Below are positions 988 through 63,132 of a stretch of 64,000 bases of DNA, in pieces. The DNA lies in contig CAVHNN010000002.1 of the NCBI GenBank assembly GCA_963637465.1, positions 22,347-86,346 of the forward strand, written 5' to 3'. The DNA comes from Paludibacteraceae bacterium (lineage in GTDB: Bacteria > Bacteroidota > Bacteroidia > Bacteroidales > UBA932). The position numbers and the translations under genes were made by a program. Each line of letters opens with the position of its first letter. Position 1 is the first letter of the stretch. The notes under the pieces were generated by a model. That model was not told the origin of the DNA and ran no database searches. It was given only the letters and a program-made list of their open reading frames with translations.

Positions 988-2535
988 CTAATGTTTGAAA
1001 TGTCTTACTCCCGTCATCAGCATCACTATGCCGCACTCGTCGGCCTTGGCGACGGCCTCCGCATCCCTGATGCTGCCCCCCGGCTGGACGATGGCGCTCA
1101 CCCCGTAGCGGGCGGCGAGGGAGACCGTGTCGTCGAACGGCAGGAAGCCGTCGGACGCGAGCACGAGGCCCTCAGTGTATCCGGCCTCCCGGGCCTGTCT
1201 GAGGGCGATTTCGGCGGAGCCCACGCGGTTGGTCTGGCCGGCTCCGACACCTACCGTGTGCCCGTCACGCACCACCGCTATCGCATTGGATTTGATGTGC
1301 TTGACTATCCTCCATCCGAAGTCGAGATCGCGCATCTGCGCCTCCGTAGGCTTCGCTGCGCTGACACACATCTGCGGGGAGAGAGTCTCCGTGCAAGTGT
1401 CGAGCTGCTGAGAGAGAAGACCTCCGCATACGCTGACATACTGCATCTGCGGACTGCTGTCGGGGGTCATGTCCACCTTGAGCACGCGCAGGTTCTTCTT
1501 GGCGGAGAGAATCTCCAGAGCCTCATCGGTGAACGAGGGGGCAATGACGATTTCGAGGAAAATCGGCTTCATCCCCCTCGCGACCTCGGCGGTGAGCTCC
1601 CTGTTGAGAGCGACTATTCCTCCGTATATGCTCACCTTGTCAGCTTCCAAGGCCGCCTGCCAGGCCTGCTCTATGGTAGGGGCGACGGCGGCTCCGCAAG
1701 GGTTCATGTGCTTGAGGGAGATGCAGCACGGCTCCGCGAAGTCGCGTATCGTGCAGAGCGCGGCGTTGGCATCCTGGATATTGTTGTAGGACAGTTCCTT
1801 GCCCTGAATCTGCTCCGCGAACGGAAGGGCGTAGGAGAGCCTCTCCTCCCCGGCGTAGAACTTGGCCTGCTGGTGAGGGTTCTCCCCGTAGCGCAGGGTC
1901 TGACGGAGTTCGTATTCGAGGAAGAGCTTCTCAGTCAGCCCCGCCTTTTCACGCATGTAGCGCGCAATGCAGCTGTCGTATTCGGCGGTGTGGGTGTAAG
2001 CCTTGGCGGAGAGCTTCAGTCTGGTGGCGGGGGAAGTCTCGCCCCTCTCCCGAAGTTCGGAGAGCACCGGAGAGTAGTCGGCGGGGTCGCATATCACGCT
2101 CACGTCCTTCCAGTTCTTGGCCGCGCTGCGAAGCATCGACGGACCGCCGATGTCGATATTCTCGACGGCCTGCTCCATCGTCACGTCCTCGCGGGCTATG
2201 GTCCGGCGGAAAGGGTAGAGGTTGACGCAGACCATATCGATGGGGCTTATCCCCTGCTGCTCAAGGGTCTGCATATGAGAAGGGTCGTCCCGCCGGGCGA
2301 GCAGGCCTCCGTGCACCTTGGGATGGAGGGTCTTGACCCTGCCGTCGAGAATCTCCGGGAAGCCCGTGACCTCGCTTATTCCCCTTGTCTTGATTCCGCT
2401 GTCTTCCAACAGCTTCTGCGTGCCTCCGGTGGCCACTATCTCCCATCCCAGAGAGACCAGCCCCTCCACGAACGGCACCAGTCCGGTCTTGTCGCTGACG
2501 CTGACCAAAGCTCTTTTAGTATTTGTCTTAACCAT
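988..2535 (-). CDS. purH: Bifunctional AICAR transformylase / IMP cyclohydrolase
   Basis: 515 aa. N-terminal MGS-like domain (ALVSVSDKTGLV...GGT...LDGRVKTLHPKVHGGLL) and a C-terminal AICARFT domain. ATG confirmed at 2535. Confidence 0.95.
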   Translation of the reverse strand: MVKTNTKRALVSVSDKTGLVPFVEGLVSLGWEIVATGGTQKLLEDSGIKTRGISEVTGFPEILDGRVKTLHPKVHGGLLARRDDPSHMQTLEQQGISPIDMVCVNLYPFRRTIAREDVTMEQAVENIDIGGPSMLRSAAKNWKDVSVICDPADYSPVLSELRERGETSPATRLKLSAKAYTHTAEYDSCIARYMREKAGLTEKLFLEYELRQTLRYGENPHQQAKFYAGEERLSYALPFAEQIQGKELSYNNIQDANAALCTIRDFAEPCCISLKHMNPCGAAVAPTIEQAWQAALEADKVSIYGGIVALNRELTAEVARGMKPIFLEIVIAPSFTDEALEILSAKKNLRVLKVDMTPDSSPQMQYVSVCGGLLSQQLDTCTETLSPQMCVSAAKPTEAQMRDLDFGWRIVKHIKSNAIAVVRDGHTVGVGAGQTNRVGSAEIALRQAREAGYTEGLVLASDGFLPFDDTVSLAARYGVSAIVQPGGSIRDAEAVAKADECGIVMLMTGVRHFKH

Positions 2536-2557
2536 TTATCTGCCTGTTTGAAGTTTT

Positions 2558-3130
2558 CTAAGCTTTTATCAACTTGGAAATCGTCTCGACGTAGAGCTCA
2601 TGCTCTATCTTCTGCCCGAGGCGGTGTACTTCCCGGGGGTCGTCCCCGTCATATTCGAAGGCGCGCTGGGCGATTATGCGGCCTGCGTCGAGTTCGGAGT
2701 TGACATAGTGAATCGTGATCCCGTAAACCTTGACCCCGTACTCCACAGCCTGCTCCACGGCATGAGCCCCCCGGAACGCGGGAAGAAGGGAGGGGTGGAT
2801 ATTGATGATGCGCCCCCCGTAGGCCTCCAGCAGCACGTCGGAGATGATGCGCATATAACCGGCGAGGCACACGAGATCCACTCCCAGAGCATCCATCCTG
2901 GAGGCTATCTCCCTCTCGAAATCAGCCTTGCAGGCATAGTCCCCGGGATTGAAGACAAAACTCTCCACCCCCCTTCCGAGGGCCTTTCCCACCACCGGGG
3001 CGGACGGCTTGTCGCAGACCATCAGGACAACGTCGGCGTTGAGCCTCCCGTCCTTGCAGGCGTCGTCTATGGCCTCGAAATTGGAGCCTGTTCCGCTGGC
3101 GAAAACGGATAGTTTCTTTCTTTCCCCCAT
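2558..3130 (-). CDS. purN: Phosphoribosylglycinamide formyltransferase
   Basis: 190 aa with SGTGSNFEAI, LAGYMRI and INIHPSLLPAF motifs typical of the PurN formyltransferase family. Confidence 0.9.
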   Translation of the reverse strand: MGERKKLSVFASGTGSNFEAIDDACKDGRLNADVVLMVCDKPSAPVVGKALGRGVESFVFNPGDYACKADFEREIASRMDALGVDLVCLAGYMRIISDVLLEAYGGRIINIHPSLLPAFRGAHAVEQAVEYGVKVYGITIHYVNSELDAGRIIAQRAFEYDGDDPREVHRLGQKIEHELYVETISKLIKA

Positions 3131-3131
3131 A

Positions 3132-4157
3132 TCAGATGATGCTTACTCCCGGCACAGCTGTGACCTTGCCTATCACTGAAGCCTTCTCACCGTGGCTTTC
3201 GAGTATCGAGATGGCCTTCTGCGCTTCGGATTCGTCGAGAACGATGACCATGCCGATTCCCATGTTGAAGACGTTGAACATCTCCCGGTGAGGCACGCCG
3301 CCCCACTTTTCGAGCATTCTGAACACCGGCGGAATCTCCCAGCTTCCCTCATTTATCTCAATCCCCTGGCCGCCCTGCAGCACGCGAGGGATGTTCTCGT
3401 CGAAGCCGCCGCCGGTGATATGGCTGATTCCGTGCACGTCGCAGCTGCGTATCACTTCGAGCACCTGCTTGACATATATCTTGGTAGGGGTCAGCAGCAC
3501 CTCGCCGAGACTGCGTCCGCCAAACTCCGGGATGACATCGGAGTACGAGAGTCCGTTGTCGGAGACTATTTTGCGCACGAGGCTGAAGCCGTTGGAATGC
3601 ACTCCCGAAGAGGCCACTCCCACAAGGATGTCCCCCACCTTGACCTTGCTCCCGTCGATGAGACGGGACTTCTCCACCACTCCGACGGTGAAGCCGGCAA
3701 TGTCGTACTCCCCGCCATCATACATCCCGGGCATCTCCGCCGTCTCGCCTCCGACCAGTGCGCAGCCCGCCTGACGGCAGCCTTCGGCGACCCCGGAGAC
3801 TATAGCCTCAACCTTGAAAGGGTCATTGTGGCCGACGGCCACATAGTCGAGAAAAATCAGAGGCTCGGCCCCCTGCGCGAGCACGTCGTTGACGCACATC
3901 GCCACGGCGTCGATTCCGACAGTGTCGTGCTTTCCCATAGCGAAGGCTATCTTGAGTTTGGTGCCCACCCCGTCGGTGCCGCTGACAAGCACCGGCTCCC
4001 TGTAGCCGAGAGAGGCGAGGTCGAACATCCCTCCGAACGAGCCTATGCCGCCCATCGAGCCCGGGCGGGCCGTGGAGGAGACATGCTTCTTGATGCGGCG
4101 GACCACTTCGTAGCCGGCTTCCAGACTGACTCCGGCGTTTTCGTATGATTTAGCCAT
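3132..4157 (-). CDS. purM: Phosphoribosylformylglycinamidine cyclo-ligase (AIR synthetase)
   Basis: The ORF track gives 3132-4286. I placed the start at the internal ATG 4157 ([11 protein letters not shown]..., the typical PurM N-terminus). The upstream 43 codons overlap purC and look non-coding. GTDGVGTK motif present. Confidence 0.92.
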
Positions 4158-53163: not shown

Positions 53164-54366
53164 ATGACATCGTCCTTTCTTAATGACTTAACAGGCAAAA
53201 ACGCCCAGACAAAACGGGAGATACTCCGTCTTTGCATCAAGAACAACAATTCGAGCATCGCCGACTTCAGCAGGGCGCTTGGGATAAGCGTGCCCACCAT
53301 CACCAAACTGATAGCGGAGCTGATGGCGGAGAACTTCCTGCAGGACGAAGGCAAAGTGGGGACCAGCGGCGGCCGCCGGCCGAGCGTTTACGGACTCAAC
53401 CCGGAAGCCGGATATTTCGTGGGGGTGGATATCGCGAGGCATCATTTCCACATCGGCATCAGCAACTTCAAGGGCGAGATAGTCAACTTCATCCAGGACA
53501 TCGAGTTCGTCCTCGAAGCCAACGAGCTGTCGTTCCGGACAATCTGCCGCATGGTCAAGGACGAGGTCACGAAAAGCGGGATACCCTGGATCAAGGTTCT
53601 CGGCGTGGGAGTCAGCCTCTCGGGCCGCGTGAATCCGGAGAAGGGCTACAGCCTGACCTATTTCGTGAGCGACGACATTCCTCTCAAGAACATCTTCCAG
53701 AAAGAGTTCAACGTCCCGGTCAACATCGAGAACGACTCGCGCGCGATGGCCTACGGAGAATACATGACCCTCGGAGACAAGGCCGACAAGAACATGATTT
53801 TCATCAACCTCAGCTGGGGTCTCGGAATGGGGATCATCACCGACGGGAAGCTCTACTACGGCAAGTCGGGCTATTCCGGAGAGATAGGCCACTTCCCGGC
53901 CCTGAGCAACGACATCATCTGCCGCTGCGGCAAGGTCGGATGCCTTGAGACGGGGGCCTCGGGTTCGGCCCTGCACAGGATGATGGTCGAGGAGCTGAAG
54001 AAAGGACACTCCTCCTCGCTGCTCAAGCCGTTCAGCCGGAAGGGGGACATCGAGCTTGACGAGATTCTCACCGCCGTGGAGATGGGCGACGTGCTGGCCA
54101 TTGACGGAATCGGCAACGTCGGCGACACCCTCGGAAGAGGAATCGCCGGAGTCCTCAACGTGTTCAACCCGGGACTCGTGGTGATCGGCGGACGGCTCAT
54201 CGTCGGCAAGGACTACCTGCTCCTGCCCATCAAGACCGCCGTCAACAGGCTCTGCCTCTCCAGGGTTTCTTCGGACACGTCGATAGTGCTCTCGCAGCTT
54301 GACCGCCGCGCCGCCGCCGTGGGGGACTGCCTGCTCTCCAGAGGCAAAGTTCTCGGCATCATTTAG
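53164..54366 (+). CDS. ROK family transcriptional regulator
   Basis: 400 aa. N-terminal winged HTH (ILRLCIKNNNSSIADFSRALGISVPTITKLIAEL), a ROK sugar-kinase-like body and the CxCGxxGCLE zinc motif. Confidence 0.88.
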   Translation: MTSSFLNDLTGKNAQTKREILRLCIKNNNSSIADFSRALGISVPTITKLIAELMAENFLQDEGKVGTSGGRRPSVYGLNPEAGYFVGVDIARHHFHIGISNFKGEIVNFIQDIEFVLEANELSFRTICRMVKDEVTKSGIPWIKVLGVGVSLSGRVNPEKGYSLTYFVSDDIPLKNIFQKEFNVPVNIENDSRAMAYGEYMTLGDKADKNMIFINLSWGLGMGIITDGKLYYGKSGYSGEIGHFPALSNDIICRCGKVGCLETGASGSALHRMMVEELKKGHSSSLLKPFSRKGDIELDEILTAVEMGDVLAIDGIGNVGDTLGRGIAGVLNVFNPGLVVIGGRLIVGKDYLLLPIKTAVNRLCLSRVSSDTSIVLSQLDRRAAAVGDCLLSRGKVLGII

Positions 54367-54372
54367 AAGCTG

Positions 54373-56136
54373 ATGGCAAGTTATCTCCAGATCGAGAACA
54401 TCTCCAAGTCCTATGGACAGAAGATGCTCTTTGAAAATATAGGCTTCAATGTCAACGAGGGGGACAAGATAGCCCTCGTGGCTCCGAACGGCACCGGCAA
54501 GACGACGCTGCTGCGTATTCTCGCGGGACGGGATTCCTCCGACTCCGGAGGCAAGGTCATCTTCCTGAAAGACATCAGGATAGCCTTCCTTGAGCAGGAT
54601 TACGACTACGACCCCGGGCTCGGTATCATGGAGCAGATACTCCGCCACAGCCGCAGGATGCCCTGGGACTTCCATCAGGAGAACCTCGAGGCGTTCGGGC
54701 GCAAGGCGGTGGAATTGCTGACCTCGTTCCGCCTCCCCGACCCTTCCAAAAAGATGGGGGAACTTTCCGGAGGCGAAGTCAAGAGAGTGGCTCTCAGCGA
54801 GATGCTCGCATCCGAAGCGGATTTCCTGATAATGGACGAACCCACCAATCACCTTGACATCGAGGCGGTGGAGTTTCTCGAAGACTACCTGAAACGCAGC
54901 CGCCGCACCCTGCTGATGGTGACGCACGACAGGTATTTCCTCGACAGGGTCTGCAATATCGTGATGGAGCTCGACCACGGGGCCGTCTACAGTTACAAAG
55001 GTGACTATCAGAACTACCTTGAGAAACGGGACAGCCGCATCGCCTCCTACAACGCGGAGACGGACAAGGTGCGCAACCTGCTCCGCAGAGAGCTGGAGTG
55101 GATACACGCCACCCCCTGCGCCCGCTCCGGCAAGGCCAAATACCGCATCAACGCCTTCCACGAACTCTCGGAGCGCGCCTCCCAAGCTTACAGCACGAAG
55201 AGCGTCAGCCTCGAAGGCGTCGGGGAAGCCTCCCGTCTGGGCAGCAAGATCATCAACTGCAAGGGAGTCGATTACCTTTGGGAGGGCCGCTGCCTCCTCA
55301 AGGATTTCAGCTACAATTTCCAAAGATACGACAAGGTCGGAATCGTGGGCCGCAACGGCATAGGCAAGTCCACCTTCCTCGGCCTGCTCACGGGCGAGAT
55401 ACAGCCCGCTGCGGGCATAATAGAGCGCGGAGAGTCGCTCGTCATCGGTTACTACCGGCAGAACGGCATGCAGTTCAACGACAACGACAGCGTGCTCGAC
55501 ATCGTGAGCGACCCCAGGCTGCTCGGACGCTTCCTGTTCCCGCACGACGCGCTGACCACGCCCGTCTCCAGACTCTCCGGAGGCGAGAGGCGCCGTCTGT
55601 ACCTGCTGACCATCCTGATGCGCAACCCCAACCTGCTGATTCTCGACGAGCCGACCAACGATCTGGACATCGTGACCCTCAACCTGCTCGAAGAGTATCT
55701 GTCCGAGTACGGCGGCAGCCTCATCGTCGTCAGCCACGACAGGCACTTCCTCGACAGGGTGACAAGCCACCTTCTGGTCTTCTGCGGAGACGGTGTGGTC
55801 AAGGATTTCGTGGGGAGCTTCAGCGAATACCGCGCCTATATCAAAGATTATGAGGCGGCTCTCAAGAGCGACAGAGAAAGCAGGAAGAAAGCGCCCGCAG
55901 CCCCGAAAGCCCCGGCGCAGGAAAGGCCGAGGAAACTCAGCTACAAGGAAAGCCGCGAGCTGGAGGACATCGAGAAGGCCCTTCCGAAGCTCGAAGAGGA
56001 GAAGGCCGCCCTGGAGGCTCTCATGAGCTCGGGGAATGCGGACTACGAACAGCTGCAGAAGAGCTCCTCGCGGATGGAAGAACTTCTGTCCGAAATAGAC
56101 TCTCTGGAAACCCGCTGGCTGGAACTTCAGCCTTAG
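54373..56136 (+). CDS. ABC-F family ATPase (two ABC cassettes, C-terminal coiled coil)
   Basis: 587 aa with two Walker A sites (APNGTGKTT, GRNGIGKST) and two LSGGE signatures. No TM segments. Confidence 0.88.
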   Translation: MASYLQIENISKSYGQKMLFENIGFNVNEGDKIALVAPNGTGKTTLLRILAGRDSSDSGGKVIFLKDIRIAFLEQDYDYDPGLGIMEQILRHSRRMPWDFHQENLEAFGRKAVELLTSFRLPDPSKKMGELSGGEVKRVALSEMLASEADFLIMDEPTNHLDIEAVEFLEDYLKRSRRTLLMVTHDRYFLDRVCNIVMELDHGAVYSYKGDYQNYLEKRDSRIASYNAETDKVRNLLRRELEWIHATPCARSGKAKYRINAFHELSERASQAYSTKSVSLEGVGEASRLGSKIINCKGVDYLWEGRCLLKDFSYNFQRYDKVGIVGRNGIGKSTFLGLLTGEIQPAAGIIERGESLVIGYYRQNGMQFNDNDSVLDIVSDPRLLGRFLFPHDALTTPVSRLSGGERRRLYLLTILMRNPNLLILDEPTNDLDIVTLNLLEEYLSEYGGSLIVVSHDRHFLDRVTSHLLVFCGDGVVKDFVGSFSEYRAYIKDYEAALKSDRESRKKAPAAPKAPAQERPRKLSYKESRELEDIEKALPKLEEEKAALEALMSSGNADYEQLQKSSSRMEELLSEIDSLETRWLELQP

Positions 56137-56172
56137 AAGCCGCAGCTTCTTAGAAGTTAAGGATATATTTCT

Positions 56173-56180
56173 TACCTTTG
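56173..56180 (+). promoter_or_regulatory. Candidate -7 box (TACCTTTG) for the TerC gene
   Basis: Exact TAnnTTTG, about 70 nt upstream of the ATG at 56250. Confidence 0.4.
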
Positions 56181-56249
56181 CGCCCGGCTTCTTTTCCCAT
56201 GCGCCCCGCACGGGCCGGAAGGGAGGAAATTCGTTTTAAAAAAGAACAA

Positions 56250-57281: not shown

Positions 57282-58073
57282 CTATCTGAAAATGTCGTTC
57301 AGCACTGAGGCGAGGCGAAGGCCGGCCCGAAGAAGCTGAGTTTCAATGACCGGAGCCCAGGTGCTCACATAATCATAAGAGAGCTTGGAGCCGACGGGGG
57401 TGGAGTCATAGACCGACTTGCATATCCGGTAAGTCTCCTCTCCCCAGGATTCCGGAGTTCCGGCGGCAATCTCCCGGTTCACTTCCTTGCCGTTGGTGTC
57501 GATCTGCTCGACCCACTCGGTATAGGTCCACTTGTGGGCGCTCTCCACAATCGAGGAGTCCCAGATGGAATGGAGGTTGGTGCCGCTGTTGAAATAGCGC
57601 AGCTGCCAGGAGTTGCCGCCCCGGTCGGACTTGTGCCCCATGTGCATCGGGCAGTGCAGGTCTCCCATGAGATGAACCAGGAATTTGAGAGAAAGAGCCT
57701 GCTCCTCCTTGCTCAGCTTCCCGCTTTTCAAGGCGGCGATCTGCTCGTTTATGGCCCTGATGACATCCCCGTTTTCGTTGAGGGCGGCATCGGAAAAAGT
57801 CTCGTCGGCGTCGATGTTCTTGTAGTGCCAGGTGCTCGTGTATTTGTACTCCGGAGTATGGCTGGCGTTGTCCATCCAGTTGGCCCAATATACGATCGAC
57901 TTCCCGTCCAGAATTTCGGAGATTTTCTTGTCCGCCTTTTTCGTAAGGTGTTTCTGCGCCACGGCGCAGGTCACGTCATGGCCTTTCTGCCCCCAAGAAT
58001 AGCCGGTCACCGACACGGCGAGAAGGCCCGCCGCAAGGCAGAGCCTCTTCAAAATAGTGCTTGTACTTTCCAT
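57282..58073 (-). CDS. S1/P1 nuclease family protein (secreted)
   Basis: Signal peptide then WGQKGHD. Also HYKNID, HLMGDLHCPMH and NLHSIWD zinc-ligand blocks. The ATG at 58073 is preferred over the GTG at 58088. Confidence 0.85.
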   Translation of the reverse strand: MESTSTILKRLCLAAGLLAVSVTGYSWGQKGHDVTCAVAQKHLTKKADKKISEILDGKSIVYWANWMDNASHTPEYKYTSTWHYKNIDADETFSDAALNENGDVIRAINEQIAALKSGKLSKEEQALSLKFLVHLMGDLHCPMHMGHKSDRGGNSWQLRYFNSGTNLHSIWDSSIVESAHKWTYTEWVEQIDTNGKEVNREIAAGTPESWGEETYRICKSVYDSTPVGSKLSYDYVSTWAPVIETQLLRAGLRLASVLNDIFR

Positions 58074-58117
58074 ACCGCAAAGGTGCACAATTTTCTTTAC
58101 ACCTCACCAAAAAATGC

Positions 58118-58125
58118 TAAATTTG
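58118..58125 (+). promoter_or_regulatory. Candidate -7 box (TAAATTTG) for the five-gene RRE operon
   Basis: Exact TAnnTTTG, 29 nt upstream of the ATG at 58155. Confidence 0.45.
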
Positions 58126-58154
58126 CGCCAAATCTGAATATTGCATCAAAAATC

Positions 58155-59294
58155 ATGGACATCGCGACCTCGCTGTTCTTCACTTTGCTCAGAAGCGGCC
58201 TCTGGGGGACAGAGCCGGTTCCGCCCCGACTGTCGGAAAACGGACAATCCGGAGACGTGTCTCCCGAACTTGAAGTCTGGAAAAAGACCTTCCGCCTCGC
58301 GAAGGAACAGACCGTCATCGGACTCATCACCGATGGAGCCTCCAAGTGCCCGGCGGGATATGTCCCGAAGGACGTTTCCATCAGGCTGATGTCCGCCCTG
58401 ATAAACGTAGAGAAGCGCAACGCTTCGGTCAACGCTCTCATTTCCAGGATTATCCCCCTGTTCGATGAGGCAGGGGTACCTGTCATCCTCGTCAAAGGTC
58501 AGGCCGTGGCGCAGTGCTACTCCAGACCGGAGGGGAGGATGAGCGGAGACATCGACCTCATAGTGAGACCGAAGGACTACGAAGATGCCAAGGCGGTTCT
58601 CTCCGGAATAGCTGACAATGTTGACGGGGAGGGGCGCGACAAGCTTCACTTCGGAGCGATGATAGGCGATATCGAGGTCGAGCTTCACGGCACGGTCCAC
58701 ACCAGCCTCGGAGGCAGAATCAACGACGTGCTCGATTCGGCGCAGGAGGCGCTCTTCGAGCCGGGGGGCTGCCGCCAGCTCGACGTGAACGGTGTCCGGG
58801 TCCGCATCCCGTCGATAGATTTCGACGCCATGTTCATCTTCGTCCACCTCCTCCAGCACTTCTACTGCGGCGGCCTGGGGCTCAGGCAGCTGTGCGACTG
58901 GGCAAGGGTTCTTCACACCCACTGCGCCCGGATTGACCGGGAACTTCTCGCCTCAAGGCTCAGGCAGATGGGGATAGTCGGCGAATGGCAGGCGTTCCTC
59001 TCCTTCATCGTCAAATATCTCGCTCTTCCCAAGGAGGAGGCCCCGATGTATGACAGGAAATCGGAGAGCAAGGCCGACAAGCTCTGGAAATTCATAGAAA
59101 AGGTGGGCAATTTCGGCAAGAACCGCCGCCGGCGCAATCGCGGAAAAGATCCCTACGTCATCAGGAAGATCGGCTCGTTCCTTCTCAATTCGGGGGATTT
59201 TCTGCGCCATGTCGCGATTTTCCCGCTTGACTCGGTCAAGTTTTTCTGTAAATATTTCACCTCCGGCACAAGAGCGGTGATACGGGGCGAATGA
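58155..59294 (+). CDS. Nucleotidyltransferase family protein (NTP_transf_5-like)
   Basis: 379 aa from ATG 58155 (MDIATSLFFTLLRSGLWG). Pol-beta-type motif KGQAVAQCY...SGDIDLIV (GDID at 58545-58556). The track ORF start at 57534 is antisense to the nuclease gene and was rejected. Confidence 0.72.
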   Translation: MDIATSLFFTLLRSGLWGTEPVPPRLSENGQSGDVSPELEVWKKTFRLAKEQTVIGLITDGASKCPAGYVPKDVSIRLMSALINVEKRNASVNALISRIIPLFDEAGVPVILVKGQAVAQCYSRPEGRMSGDIDLIVRPKDYEDAKAVLSGIADNVDGEGRDKLHFGAMIGDIEVELHGTVHTSLGGRINDVLDSAQEALFEPGGCRQLDVNGVRVRIPSIDFDAMFIFVHLLQHFYCGGLGLRQLCDWARVLHTHCARIDRELLASRLRQMGIVGEWQAFLSFIVKYLALPKEEAPMYDRKSESKADKLWKFIEKVGNFGKNRRRRNRGKDPYVIRKIGSFLLNSGDFLRHVAIFPLDSVKFFCKYFTSGTRAVIRGE

Positions 59295-60196
59295 CAAACG
59301 ATAAAGAAATGACAAGACAATACTCTATAGCAGACCACCTTATCGAAATCTCGGCGCCGGACGGCTCCGTGCTCTGGGAAGTCTGCACCAACTACGCCCC
59401 GTTCGAGCTGGACGGGAAGGGCGCAGGGACGCAGGAGCCTCTCTGCCGCCTCGAAATCACGGATGAACTGGAAATCCCGGAAGTCACGCACGTATATACG
59501 TCGGCGGAAAAAGGTTTCCCGAGACTGGAAATCAGCCGTTTCGACGGAGGATGGACGGTGAAGATGGCTCCGAACATGGATGCTCCCGAGGCGGCGCTGC
59601 TCCTCTCCGACGAGAATTTCCACAACGTAAGGCTCCGGCTGCTCTCCGGGAGCGGCACGGCTATGCGTTTCGCGCTGGACAACTCCATGATGCTGGCGTT
59701 CGCCCTGGCATCCGCCCCGCTCGGGACTATGGAGATCCACTCATCTGTCACCGTATGCGATGGCCGCGGGTATTCGTTCCTCGGCAAGAGCGGCACCGGC
59801 AAGAGCACGCACAGCCGGCTCTGGAGGGAGAACATTCCAGGCAGCACCCTGCTCAACGATGACAATCCGGTGATCCGCATCAAGGACGGGCAGGCCCGGA
59901 TCTACGGCACCCCGTGGAGCGGCAAGACCCCATGCTACAAGGCTGAGAGCGTTCCGCTCGCGGCGGTAGTCCGCATACGCCAGTCCCCCGAAAACAAGAT
60001 ACGGCGCCTCTCCCCGATAGAGGCCTACGCCTCGCTGTATTCCTCCTGCTCGGCGTTCCGCGAGGTGAAGGGGACGTCCGACGGGATACACGACACTCTC
60101 AGCAGACTCGCCGCCCTCGTGCCGATGTACACGCTGGACTGCCGCCCGGACGCTGAGGCCGCCCTCCTGTGCCATTCAAGCGTAAGCGAGCGATGA
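59291..60196 (+). CDS. HprK-related serine kinase-like protein
   Basis: 301 aa with P-loop GKSGTGKST (59783-59809) embedded in an HPr-kinase C-terminal-like context (IHSSVTVCDGRGYSFLGKSGTGKSTHSRLW...NDDNPVI). ATGA overlap with the upstream gene. Confidence 0.68.
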   Translation: MTNDKEMTRQYSIADHLIEISAPDGSVLWEVCTNYAPFELDGKGAGTQEPLCRLEITDELEIPEVTHVYTSAEKGFPRLEISRFDGGWTVKMAPNMDAPEAALLLSDENFHNVRLRLLSGSGTAMRFALDNSMMLAFALASAPLGTMEIHSSVTVCDGRGYSFLGKSGTGKSTHSRLWRENIPGSTLLNDDNPVIRIKDGQARIYGTPWSGKTPCYKAESVPLAAVVRIRQSPENKIRRLSPIEAYASLYSSCSAFREVKGTSDGIHDTLSRLAALVPMYTLDCRPDAEAALLCHSSVSER

Positions 60197-60654
60197 CACG
60201 GCTCCTGCTCCCCAATGACATCCTGCTTTCGCAGGTGGAGGAGTTCCTGCGCGAAGGCCGCGAGGTGATACTCAGGGCAAGGGGCAACAGCATGCTCCCG
60301 TTCATCCGTGACGGGAGGGACAGCGTGGTTCTGCACAGCTGCGACGACCCGCAGGTCGGGGACATCGTGCTCGTGAAGCTTCCGGGGAGATATGTGATGC
60401 ACCGTATCATAAGGCATGACGGAGAGATTTATACGATGATGGGGGACGGCAACATACGGGGCACGGAGAGCTTCACGAGGGAGGACGTGCTCGGCAAGGT
60501 GACCGGAATCATACGGGGCGAAGGCAGGGAAATCAAGCCCGGAAAGGGCAGACTGTGGCACTTTCTGCTGCCCGTAAGGCGCTGGATTCTCGCCATCTAC
60601 AGAAGACTCCCGGCCCGGGGCGGGAAAGCTTCAAGGCTGAAAAAAAATAAATAA
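60193..60654 (+). CDS. Signal-peptidase-like serine protease (S24/S26 clan; SipW/Sec11-type Ser-His pattern), soluble
   Basis: GNSMLP (Ser codon 60289-60291), GDIVLVK, YVMHRII (His codon 60400-60402) and MGDGN line up with the S26B blocks GSMEP / THRI / GDNN. No N-terminal TM helix. ATGA overlap with the kinase gene. Confidence 0.68.
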   Translation: MTRLLLPNDILLSQVEEFLREGREVILRARGNSMLPFIRDGRDSVVLHSCDDPQVGDIVLVKLPGRYVMHRIIRHDGEIYTMMGDGNIRGTESFTREDVLGKVTGIIRGEGREIKPGKGRLWHFLLPVRRWILAIYRRLPARGGKASRLKKNK

Positions 60655-60665
60655 AGACAAATAAG

Positions 60666-60935
60666 ATGAAAATCAAGGAAGGATTCGTGCTCCGTTCGAT
60701 AGGAGACACTTACATGGTAATCGGAGAGGGCCTGGCCCAGATAGACTTCAACAAGATGGTATCCCTCAACTCCACGGCGGCCTATCTCTGGAACTCGCTT
60801 CTGGGCAAGGAGTTCAACAGAGGCGATGTACGCGACCTGCTGCTCGGGCAGTACGACGTGGACGAGAAGACGGCGCAGGCCGACGCCGACGCGCTCGTGG
60901 AGAAATGGCTCGAAGCGGGGCTTCTGACTGAGTAA
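60666..60935 (+). CDS. PqqD family protein (RiPP recognition element-like)
   Basis: 89 aa. The MVSLNSTAAYLWNSLLGKEFNRGDVRDLLLGQYDVDEKTAQADADALVEKWLEAGLL pattern is typical of PqqD/RRE winged-helix proteins. Confidence 0.75.
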   Translation: MKIKEGFVLRSIGDTYMVIGEGLAQIDFNKMVSLNSTAAYLWNSLLGKEFNRGDVRDLLLGQYDVDEKTAQADADALVEKWLEAGLLTE

Positions 60936-60937
60936 CG

Positions 60938-62572
60938 ATGCGGAGTCTGCGCAGCTGCCTCGGGGGTCTTCGCGGGATGTCCGGCCCTGCGAGGAAGTGG
61001 GCTCTCGCCTGCTTTCTGCTGGGATTGGTGCGGATAGCCGCCTCGCTCTCGTTCGTGTGGATCTGCAAAGAGCTCGTGGACGTGGCGACCGGGGTCTCCC
61101 CCGCCCCTCTTCCCGGCAGAATCGCGCTCATGGCCTGCATCATGGCCACTCAGATAGCGGCCAATCTCGCTTATTCATATTGTGAGAAATACGGCATCCT
61201 GCAAACTCAGAACACTTTGCGGGAGAGCCTTTTCGGGAATGTCCTCTCCTCTGAATGGACGGGGAGGGAGAGGTTCGGCAGCGGGGATGCCGTCAACCGG
61301 CTCGAAGAGGACATAAGGATAGTGTCGGAACTGCTGTGCCGCCATATCCCCGGCGCGGCGGTGACCTTGTGCCAGCTGGTCGCGGCATCGGCCTATCTGC
61401 TGATGATGGCTCCGGGCCTGCTCTGGGTGCTGCTCGTCCTGATGTGCGCGGCAATCGTGGGCTCGCGGCTGTTCTTCCTGAAGCTGCGCTCTCTGACCTC
61501 CGACATCCGCAGCCTCGACTCCGACATCCAGCAGCTGCTCCAGGAGAATCTTCAGAACCGCCTGCTGGCCCTCACCCTGATAGGGACGGCGAGGGTGCTC
61601 GCGTCGCTGGGCGGTCTCCAGTCCCGCCTCAAGAGCAAGACGAAGACCAGGCTGGGCTACCACACGGTCGCGCGCGGCATGATGTCCCTCGGGTTCATGG
61701 GCGGCTACGCGACGGCCTTCATCTGGGGAATACTCGGAATCCGGAGCGGTGCGGTCAGCTTCGGCATGATGACCGCGTTCCTGCAGCTCGTGGGACAGGT
61801 GCAGCGTCCGGTGGCCGACCTCGCAAGCGAACTCCCGGCATTCATCCACGCTCTGACCTCGATAGAGCGCCTCATGGAACTTGACAGCCTGCCCGCCGAG
61901 AAGGACGAGCAGAAGTGGACGGCAGCGCAGGAGGCCGGAGTGCGCTTCGAGAACGTGACCTTCGCCTATCCCGACATCTGCGGACGGAAAGTGCTGAAAG
62001 GGTTCTCGCACGACTTCCGCCCGGGAACCCTCACCGCCATCGCCGGACCTACGGGGGCCGGCAAGAGCACCCTTGTGAAACTCATCCTCGGCCTGCTCAA
62101 GCCCGAGAGCGGCACGGTCACGGTTTACGATGCCAGCTCCTGCCGTCCGGCAGGGGCCGGCACCCGGGGCAACTTCCGCTATGTCCCTCAGGGCAATACA
62201 CTTATGAGCGGCACCATACGGAGCAATCTGCTGCTCTCCGACCCTGCGGCATCCGAAGAGAAGATGAAAGAGGCCCTGCATATCGCGGCGGCCGATTTCG
62301 TGCTCGACCTGCCAGAGGGGCTGGACAGCCCGTGCGGAGAATCCGGCAGCGGACTGAGCGAAGGCCAGTGCCAGAGGATTGCCGTGGCGAGGGCCCTGCT
62401 CCAGAAGGGAAGCATCCTCCTGCTGGACGAGGCCACCTCATCTCTGGACCCCGACACGGAAAAGAAGATGCTCGCCAACCTGCGCTCCTACATGAAACGC
62501 GGATTCACGCTCATCTTCATCTCCCACAGGGAAGCCGTCACCGGCAGCGCCGATGACATCGTAAGCTTGTAA
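60938..62572 (+). CDS. ABC exporter, fused permease and ATPase
   Basis: 544 aa with about 6 TM helices, then Walker A GPTGAGKST, signature LSEGQCQRIAVARAL and Walker B LLLDEATS. Confidence 0.88.
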   Translation: MRSLRSCLGGLRGMSGPARKWALACFLLGLVRIAASLSFVWICKELVDVATGVSPAPLPGRIALMACIMATQIAANLAYSYCEKYGILQTQNTLRESLFGNVLSSEWTGRERFGSGDAVNRLEEDIRIVSELLCRHIPGAAVTLCQLVAASAYLLMMAPGLLWVLLVLMCAAIVGSRLFFLKLRSLTSDIRSLDSDIQQLLQENLQNRLLALTLIGTARVLASLGGLQSRLKSKTKTRLGYHTVARGMMSLGFMGGYATAFIWGILGIRSGAVSFGMMTAFLQLVGQVQRPVADLASELPAFIHALTSIERLMELDSLPAEKDEQKWTAAQEAGVRFENVTFAYPDICGRKVLKGFSHDFRPGTLTAIAGPTGAGKSTLVKLILGLLKPESGTVTVYDASSCRPAGAGTRGNFRYVPQGNTLMSGTIRSNLLLSDPAASEEKMKEALHIAAADFVLDLPEGLDSPCGESGSGLSEGQCQRIAVARALLQKGSILLLDEATSSLDPDTEKKMLANLRSYMKRGFTLIFISHREAVTGSADDIVSL

Positions 62573-62580
62573 ATTCCCCC

Positions 62581-63132
62581 TTACTTGCCCCCGAAGAACC
62601 TCTTGTACAGGCCCTTGAAGCCTGCTCCGTGACGGGCTTCGTCCTTGGCCATCTCGTGTACGGTGTCGTGGATGGCGTCGTAGCCCAGCATCTTGGCGCG
62701 GGTGGCGATGGCGAGCTTGCCCTCGCAGGCTCCGGCCTCGGCCTCAGCGCGTTTCTTGAGATTGGTCTTGGTGTCCCAGACGACCTCCCCGAGAAGCTCG
62801 GCGAATTTGGCGGCGTGCTCGGCCTCCTCGAAGGCATAACGCTTGAAGGCGTCGGCCACCTCCGGATAACCCTCGCGCTCGGCCTGACGGCTCATGGCGA
62901 GATACATCCCCACCTCCGTGCATTCGCCGTTGAAGTGGTCGTGAAGGCCCTGCATCACCTCGGCATCCTCCACCCGGCCGTCGCCCAGCTTGTGCTCACA
63001 GGCCCACTTGCCGTCTTCTTCCTTGACTTCCACGAACTTGTCCGCCTTGGCGTGACATACCGGGCACTCCGCAGGAGGGTTCTCCCCCTCGTGCACATAA
63101 CCGCAAACGCTGCATCTGAATTTCTTTGCCAT
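62581..63132 (-). CDS. Rubrerythrin with N-terminal rubredoxin-like domain (reverse rubrerythrin)
   Basis: 183 aa. CSVCGY...CPVCH at the N-terminus, followed by ferritin-like ExxH motifs (EEAEH, DEARH). Confidence 0.9.

Follow-up and report, generated by a model that had tools for sequence, protein, structure and literature searches.

We analysed a 64-kb stretch of DNA from a Paludibacteraceae bacterium (GCA_963637465.1, contig CAVHNN010000002.1, positions 22,347 to 86,346; referred to as the window) and within it an operon of five co-oriented genes that includes a discrete PqqD-type recognition element (RRE) from pathways for peptides made on the ribosome and then post-translationally modified (RiPPs). 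The operon probably encodes the maturation and export machinery of a ribosomal peptide pathway resembling that of the linear polyphosphorylated peptides (LPPs), with a linear phosphorylated peptide as its product. All five genes lie on the + strand, as both the open reading frame (ORF) coordinates and the sequence confirm. They encode an NTP_transf_5 nucleotidyltransferase of the LppN/PsmN type (58155–59294, 379 aa, PF14907), a ScmC/HprK-related P-loop kinase of the LppK type (59291–60196, 301 aa, assigned by PF27840 and a fold match), a small S24/S26 (SipW/LppS-like) Ser/His peptidase (60193–60654, 153 aa, PF00717), the RRE (60666–60935, 89 aa, PF05402) and an ATP-binding cassette (ABC) exporter, an ABC-B half-transporter of MsbA/CydDC-like type (60938–62572, 544 aa, ABC_membrane and ABC_tran). 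The operon is a lasso-type tailoring set minus the cyclase, and the locus is a distant LPP relative with all five enzyme and transport parts. The original prediction, made from the letters of the window, had held that this set matches no characterised RiPP class. That claim has been overtaken, because the LPP class, published in May 2026 from Bacillota, is defined by this very set of genes (PMC13381572).

LPP clusters were described as lppA-K-B-S-D-N in Paenibacillus alginolyticus (Popov et al., Nat Commun 2026, PMC13381572). They are defined by the co-occurrence of LppS (SipW-like), LppB (RRE), LppK (HprK-like), LppN (NTP_transf_5) and LppD (MsbA-like), and contain one to three precursor genes with the leader YxxPxVLxHQxIxFET and a variable core (PMC13381572). 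In a heterologous host LppK adds up to four phosphates onto Ser3 of the core, and deletion of the kinase removes the +80 Da adducts on this residue (PMC13381572). The 27-residue leader is cut after Thr-1 by LppS (S29, H68, D93), and deleting LppS or mutating these residues abolishes cleavage; the reaction requires LppB and is poor on unphosphorylated peptide, and no activity was seen for LppN (PMC13381572). The window has an SpI-like (signal peptidase I-like) peptidase, a PqqD RRE, an HprK-related kinase (recognised via family models), an NTP_transf_5 enzyme and an MsbA-like exporter. The experiments on the homologous Bacillota clusters lend support to the logic first proposed for the window, in which a peptide is phosphorylated or decorated in a leader-dependent manner, cleaved and exported without any macrolactam cyclase (PMC13381572). 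Since this logic is already documented there, the operon does not define a new class.

The peptidase was compared with the sequences in Supplementary Data 1 of PMC13381572. It matches Peptidase_S24 (PF00717) with an E-value of 8e-8 and LppS in BLASTP at 36% over 94 aa (E 7e-11; 45 bits with the family profile), and its Ser33 and His70 correspond to S29 and H68 of LppS. Against the RRE-linked peptidases of cluster 4 of the sequence similarity network (SSN), from Dehalobacter and Anaerocolumna, the match extends to 34% over 137 aa (E 1.6e-21). The residues G31-x-S33-M34-x-P36, H70-R71, G84-D85-G86-N87 and E92 are invariant in 18 database homologues, and the named positions are kept in at least 95% of 55 locus-derived homologues. 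In the alignment with LexA, His70 takes the place of the catalytic Lys. Judged from the alignments, Ser33/His70 would be the Ser/His arrangement of the SipW/SEC11 type, and the third catalytic residue is probably Glu92 in place of Asp. The invariant pair and the homology to LppS are in keeping with the proposal that a Ser/His signal-peptidase-like protease takes the place of the lasso leader protease B2. A structural model (predicted local distance difference test, pLDDT, 72) has the fold of LexA, UmuD and signal peptidases (SPases). The protein was also predicted to be soluble; in agreement with this it has no N-terminal anchor, but it ends in a conserved helix (residues 119–138, with W122, R129, R130, L133 and Y136 invariant) that looks amphipathic, as in LppS. 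Its site of action is probably the cytoplasm. Of the 18 homologues, nine matched TIGR02228, by which LppS is recognised, and 15 matched the model of the nickel superoxide dismutase (NiSOD) maturation protease SodX. The window peptidase scores equally near to LexA/UmuD (S24) as to the SipW type. We considered a self-cleaving S24 protein of the LexA/UmuD type and rejected it: an invariant His stands where such proteins have their catalytic Lys, the protein consists of a bare catalytic core plus the C-terminal helix, and the LexA model reaches 23 bits against a cut-off of 111.

The product of the fourth gene matches PqqD (PF05402) with an E-value of 5e-15. When a profile of its family was searched against solved structures, the best match was the lasso RRE TfuB1 (E 1.4e-4). 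Compared with the Supplementary Data 1 sequences, the window RRE matches LppB at 25% over 57 aa (E 1.4e-4), and its invariant Asn35 and Asp73 align with Asn33 and Asp70 of LppB (PDB 9x8z), which fix the kink at the leader Pro and hydrogen-bond the leader Tyr. PqqD-type RREs with this conserved Asn/Asp pair bind short leader peptides. Much closer are the RREs of SSN cluster 4, which are clostridial, lie beside SpI-like peptidases and have the same MKIKEGF start; they are 33–41% identical to the window RRE (41% over 87 aa), with E-values of 6e-16 to 3e-20. Both the peptidase and the RRE of the window are thus nearer to SSN cluster 4, which is uncharacterised in PMC13381572, than to SSN cluster 1 of the same study.

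Profile searches confirmed the predicted NTP_transf_5, PqqD and Peptidase_S24 assignments; the fourth, Hpr_kinase_C (PF07475), gave no match to the kinase in the Pfam search. Consequently, the kinase was assigned through its precomputed annotation as the newer Pfam family PF27840 ('ScmC'), through NCBIfam scans of the whole family and through a fold search. Among 16 homologues, 15 matched TIGR04249 (ScmC), 12 matched TIGR04352 (HprK-related kinase A), all below the cut-offs, and four matched TIGR00679 weakly; the window kinase itself scored 18.7 bits with TIGR04249, for which the cut-off is 125. The models used for the 'HprK kinase' in PMC13381572 (TIGR04249, TIGR04352, TIGR04355 and TIGR00679) are those that the Bacteroidales kinases touch. 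An AlphaFold (AF2) model built from the 16 homologues had a pLDDT of 91.6, and in Foldseek it matched ATP-dependent phosphoenolpyruvate carboxykinase (ATP-PEPCK) with an E-value of 8e-9 and HprK/P with 4e-6. The motifs SGTGKST (167–173) and LLNDDNP (187–193) are invariant in the 16 database homologues. A search of the PDB with the kinase sequence returned only a spurious repeat-protein match and matches to ABC P-loops. Taken together, these results make the product of gene 2 a P-loop kinase of the PEPCK/HprK superfamily. The earlier label 'HprK-like' therefore fits at the level of superfamily and fold only, because PF07475 does not match, and we rejected an identification as HPr kinase/phosphorylase on the same grounds together with the four weak TIGR00679 matches.

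The nucleotidyltransferase matches NTP_transf_5 (PF14907) with an E-value of 2.5e-40. Its position varies among relatives, where it is the first gene, follows the RRE or is absent within 10 kb. It also has a weak match to AbiEii (E 0.054, below the cut-off), which would suit a toxin–antitoxin or anti-phage module centred on an AbiEii-like nucleotidyltransferase. We regard such a module as extremely improbable, given that PADLOC models match nothing in the operon beyond generic ABC ATPase similarity, that the nucleotidyltransferase is dispensable in most relatives and that there is no mobile-element context. The exporter consists of ABC_membrane and ABC_tran and has no C39 or other peptidase domain. 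Its best NCBIfam models are CydD/CydC and MsbA-type exporters (CydD 2.9e-63, TIGR02204 2.4e-57, TIGR02203 1e-55), all below the family cut-offs. The presence of both the NTP_transf_5 enzyme and the exporter differs among relatives.

From homology we infer each chemical step of the pathway, and what it acts on in this organism and what it is for are likewise inferences. The PqqD RRE would bind a small precursor that has a Y-x-x-P leader at its N-terminus and whose gene lies in another part of the genome. The ScmC/HprK-type kinase would then phosphorylate a Ser just past the leader, perhaps repeatedly. A possible next step is decoration of this phosphate by the NTP_transf_5 enzyme, which is the role of PsmN in pseudomycoidin. 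The Ser33/His70(/Glu92) peptidase would remove the leader presented by the RRE, and the ABC half-transporter would move the product across the inner membrane. Because the host is diderm, unlike the Bacillota hosts of LPP clusters, this export would reach only the periplasm.

GTDB species genomes were scanned by pattern. Kinase relatives are encoded in at least 594 stretches of these genomes (594 of the 600 matches listed), and the best 80 loci were fetched (numbered with the prefix L below). All 80 belong to Bacteroidales: Rikenellaceae, Muribaculaceae, Paludibacteraceae, Bacteroidaceae (including Prevotella and Phocaeicola) and Proteiniphilum. Across them the order kinase–peptidase–RRE(–exporter) recurs in differing housekeeping contexts, so that the neighbourhood comparison across Bacteroidales called for by the original prediction does reveal a conserved kinase–peptidase–RRE core. 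The commonest order, kinase–peptidase–RRE–exporter, was found in 35 loci; the nucleotidyltransferase follows the RRE in 12 and comes first, as in the window, in five, and in most of the remaining loci none was found within 10 kb. All other gene families recur in at most 14 of the approximately 80 loci. The neighbours that do recur are FtsK, LolA-like, DUF4290-like, Lnt, Dus, HtrA and MiaB-like genes; we considered FtsK, LolA-like, DUF4290-like, Lnt and Dus as parts of the module and rejected them as clade-specific housekeeping synteny. At an E-value of 1e-30 or below, the kinase family has 982 representatives (50% identity). About one in ten of the best 150 of these kinase-family representatives is a kinase–peptidase fusion of 430–470 aa, with the ScmC-type kinase at the N-terminus and the S24/SpI-like peptidase at the C-terminus (P0060, P0083, P0383, P0391 and about ten more). 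In one fusion that was verified, the peptidase part is 59% identical to the window peptidase. A different fusion occurs in Paludibacter and in a Porphyromonadaceae metagenome-assembled genome (MAG) that make up part of SSN cluster 8 in Supplementary Data 1 of PMC13381572: an SpI-like peptidase domain forms the N-terminus of an ABC exporter of approximately 745 aa, and an RRE of its own lies beside it. At least two architectures that combine an RRE with an SpI-like protein are therefore present in Bacteroidales. A literature search on the module in Bacteroides found no report of it, and a paper on rumen lasso peptides does not contain this module.

When the small ORFs of the 80 loci were clustered, one peptide family emerged near the module; most other conserved small ORFs there were rejected, being mere antisense images of adjacent genes. 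One clade has, in seven loci, an ORF of 41–50 aa that directly follows the nucleotidyltransferase gene on the + strand (L016 12904–13041, L026 12844–12996, L028 7469–7594, L033 12935–13072, L040 12834–12962, L043 12902–13027 and L053 12832–12966). At L019 the peptide gene (3043–3171, - strand) is divergent from the kinase gene and 150 nt away from it, and in five more loci it is found 1.6–8.5 kb from the module (L069 5152–5307, +; L076 14786–14905, -; L020 19274–19417, -; L035 1319–1459, +; L065 19501–19644, +). The DNA alignment of the peptide genes shows a near-invariant start codon and leader, a hypervariable 3' half in which indels stay in frame, and a conserved TATTTTTG box upstream, all of which speak for a genuine gene; in one clade the peptide gene has a TAnnTTTG box of its own. 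A profile search recovered 727 proteins at E-values up to 10. The best 120 of the 727 are all 38–54 aa long with E-values of 2e-11 or below and no Pfam annotation, and public contigs of the matches repeat the order kinase–peptidase–RRE–nucleotidyltransferase–peptide, in one case with the module 8 kb off. Within 119 members the 25 residues from Y-7 to Y+17 are near-invariant (MKKMNKxYEAPxAExIEMQMPxVLM), and we refer to these as YEAP peptides. A Ser stands at Y+19 in 86% of the 119, and all 119 tails are distinct, with 29% Gly, 12% Asp, 11% Ser and no Lys or Arg.

The YEAP peptides are likely to be substrates of the module in those lineages, because they have the leader-and-core pattern typical of RiPPs together with the YxxP motif that RREs bind. 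Their adjacency to the module in the MKKMNK clade counts as a single evolutionary event. The module of the peptide-linked clade (L016, L026, L028, L033, L040, L043, L053, L087, L093 and L095) is kinase–peptidase–RRE–nucleotidyltransferase, with no ABC exporter within 10 kb; the clade of the window shows the reverse, with the exporter present and the peptide absent. The statement that the window operon has no visible precursor is right for the window, and related Bacteroidales loci do carry a candidate family, which co-occurs with the module in some of them. This leader-peptide family, paired with the module in some lineages, is previously undescribed. The peptide gene is repeatedly found 8–80 nt upstream, on the same strand, of a gene for a surface lipoprotein or a BspA-type leucine-rich repeat (LRR) protein. 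Such downstream genes are located at L087 10215–11207, L069 5325–7361, L035 1475–3238, L020 18415–19266 and L019 152–3065. As components of the module these lipoprotein and LRR proteins were rejected, since they are non-homologous between clades and have no Pfam domain in common. One of the L019 genes (1101–3065, - strand), from a Bacteroidales MAG, encodes a 654-aa BspA-LRR surface protein with an N-terminal ubiquitin-family domain (PF00240, E 1.6e-16).

A bolder suggestion, to which we give a fairly low probability, is that the Bacteroidales module is a fixed chromosomal machine that acts in trans on dispersed and possibly multicopy YxxP-leader peptides with hypervariable Gly/Asp/Ser-rich cores. 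The arrangement would resemble that of the prochlorosins, with one machine and many unlinked precursors, many of them upstream of surface lipoprotein or BspA-LRR genes; we advance this comparison with the same reserve. The products would then be phosphorylated linear peptides, which might function at the cell surface and not as antibiotics.

Another reading is a lasso pathway split over the genome, with cyclase, B2 and precursor encoded elsewhere and acting in trans. Paeninodin and pseudomycoidin clusters have a kinase, NTP_transf_5 enzyme, PqqD protein and ABC exporter as their accessory set, the top solved match of the RRE profile is a lasso B1, and the paeninodin-family model gives a weak match to one candidate peptide (E 0.069, below the cut-off). 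As the original prediction stated, there is no lasso cyclase and no B2 in the window operon. Neither lies elsewhere in the 64 kb, and neither was found in the annotated contexts or as a recurrent neighbour at the approximately 80 loci, where Asn-synthase-like and transglutaminase-like genes are missing among the families that recur around the module. A dedicated leader peptidase always stands in the place of B2. Moreover, cyclase and B2 genes are linked to only one-third of the Bacillota LPP clusters, and the products are linear (PMC13381572). We consider a split lasso pathway very unlikely because the serine leader peptidase is constant and the cyclase genes are absent.

Returning to an LPP-like pathway, several observations weigh against it. 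The kinase and RRE are only weakly similar to the characterised Lpp proteins: the link of the kinase runs via family models rather than LppK itself, the single window RRE sequence finds LppB with an E-value of only 0.4, and LppB was absent among the matches (E up to 10) when the RRE family profile was searched against solved structures. The window peptidase itself falls short of TIGR02228, and its catalytic acid would be Glu92 and not Asp as in LppS. A precursor gene, which LPP clusters contain, was found neither in the window nor in L001, the identical contig scanned 6 kb further downstream: there is no precursor-like small ORF in the operon, in the 64 kb or in the additional 6 kb, and a leader hidden Markov model and a [YW]xxPx[LVIAFMT] scan of intergenic small ORFs in the window and L001 gave no match. 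The co-occurrences of peptide and module at 5–8 kb could be due to chance, because the peptides are possibly multicopy and regularly precede surface lipoprotein genes. Furthermore, the final product and function of LPP itself are not established (PMC13381572). Finally, the module looks vertically inherited among housekeeping genes, whereas LPP clusters in Bacilli are patchy and prone to transfer, and this setting could point to a non-antibiotic or non-RiPP role.

The last point leads to the most serious alternative, namely a housekeeping system of protein or envelope modification in which a normal cellular protein or a surface component is the substrate of the RRE-like protein, the kinase and the peptidase and is flipped or exported by the ABC protein. 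It is the most serious because the module looks vertical among core genes and LPP loci sit in capsule regions. The module is broadly conserved and is found beside FtsK, LolA, Lnt, Dus, HtrA, MiaB-like and cell-wall genes rather than in islands, and most loci have no linked precursor. In Bacilli, LPP clusters are embedded in capsule loci (PMC13381572), and the candidate peptides lie just upstream of surface lipoprotein or BspA-LRR genes. On balance we think this alternative unlikely, since RREs with the conserved Asn/Asp pair bind short leaders, the homologous five-part set has been shown to process a ribosomal peptide (PMC13381572) and several lineages carry, in physical linkage with the module, a peptide family of leader-and-core type.

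The layout of the operon is consistent with a single functional unit. As first described, the five genes stand behind one TAnnTTTG box, with ATGA stop/start overlaps exactly at 59291–59294 (genes 1 and 2) and 60193–60196 (genes 2 and 3) and gaps of 11 nt (60655–60665) before the RRE gene and 2 nt (60936–60937) before the exporter gene; coordinates and sequence agree on each of these points. The box, TAAATTTG (58118–58125, + strand), is a Bacteroidetes-type -7 promoter box whose function is inferred from its position only. The + strand has no other TAnnTTTG from 57.9 to 62.7 kb, and the box lies 30 nt upstream of the first ATG, within an intergenic region of 66 nt. Position 58118, formerly given as the start of the operon, thus belongs to the promoter box and not to the first codon. 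Upstream, the operon is flanked by an S1/P1 nuclease gene (57282–58088, - strand), and a convergent rubrerythrin gene (62581–63132, - strand) lies 8 nt past the exporter stop; because these opposite-strand genes bracket the operon, the unit consists of exactly five genes. Public contigs of identical sequence (two MAGs and one Logan assembly) have been annotated independently and show these five genes as well. The identical copies in several assemblies, the five intact ORFs and their translational coupling all speak against an orphaned, decaying cluster remnant that has lost its precursor and has no present function. The lack of a precursor in 70 kb and the variable presence of the NTP_transf_5 enzyme and exporter among relatives would agree with decay. 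We nevertheless give a remnant little credence, because the catalytic residues are invariant over the aligned homologues, down to approximately 37% identity at the kinase, and the family has the 982 representatives mentioned above.

Three long antisense ORFs were also noted in the window, all on the - strand. One (53188–56211, 1007 aa) lies opposite an ABC-F gene, and the other two (58146–58922, 258 aa; 61175–62281, 368 aa) lie opposite operon genes. All three are absent from public annotations of identical DNA, and they look like by-products of the G+C content of approximately 60%.

The operon would thereby extend the LPP class to Bacteroidales, in which the module is widespread, mostly separated from its precursor and sometimes fused. 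Orphan 'RRE-containing' calls are common in the genome-mining output of Bacteroidales, and the module would explain many of them. With a homologous module there, the LPP class would reach the Gram-negative order that is foremost in gut and rumen communities, and genetically tractable hosts would become available for finding the function of LPPs. It would also come with a natural library of candidate substrates, comprising more than 700 profile matches and 119 distinct cores among the 119 inspected, in which a conserved Ser occupies the equivalent of the phosphorylation site mapped in LppA. If the suggestion of a machine acting in trans is true, phosphorylated linear peptides are made by members of the order that dominates gut and rumen microbiota.

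Four groups of known systems can be compared with the window operon. The SynChlorMet cassette combines ScmC with the PqqD-family protein ScmD and the radical SAM proteins ScmE and ScmF, and the HPr-rel-A system is represented by TIGR04352/TIGR04353. In both, an ScmC/HprK-related kinase is paired with a PqqD-family protein, as in the window. Membership in SynChlorMet was rejected on the low TIGR04249 score of the window kinase, given above, and on the absence of a radical SAM gene from the operon and its annotated flanks. The paeninodin and pseudomycoidin lasso clusters share with the window an HprK-type kinase, acting there on a Ser of the precursor, a PqqD B1 protein, an ABC exporter and an NTP_transf_5 enzyme that decorates the phosphate, and their leaders carry [Y/W]xxP. 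They differ in having an Asn-synthetase-like cyclase and a transglutaminase-like B2; in the window a serine peptidase would cut the leader, and the product is presumably linear. The S26B signal peptidases of the SipW/SEC11 type and SodX share the GxSMxP motif, His in place of the bacterial Lys as general base and the GDxN box with the window peptidase. The window protein has no N-terminal membrane anchor, unlike these enzymes, and its substrate would be presented by the RRE rather than read as a signal peptide.

The closest comparison is with the LPP clusters themselves. Both have the same five-part core without a cyclase, and the peptidase in both is a protein of approximately 150 aa with a C-terminal hydrophobic helix. 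The YxxP leader is common to LppA and the Bacteroidales candidates, and the conserved Ser of the latter at Y+19 compares with the phosphorylated Ser3 of LppA at Y+18. Beyond YxxP the leaders diverge (YEAPxAExIEMQMPxVLM in Bacteroidales, YxxPxVLxHQxIxFET in LPP), and the candidate cores are acidic, Gly-rich and free of Lys and Arg, unlike those of LPP. Both LPPs and paeninodins were stated to be restricted to Bacillota, with a patchy distribution driven by transfer (PMC13381572); the Bacteroidales module belongs to another phylum and is widespread in housekeeping synteny rather than patchy and in capsule loci. In LPP the precursor is encoded in the cluster, and in the window it is not. The third catalytic residue is Asp in LppS and probably Glu92 in the window peptidase, and the kinase–peptidase fusions are a feature of Bacteroidales that sets them apart from LPP.

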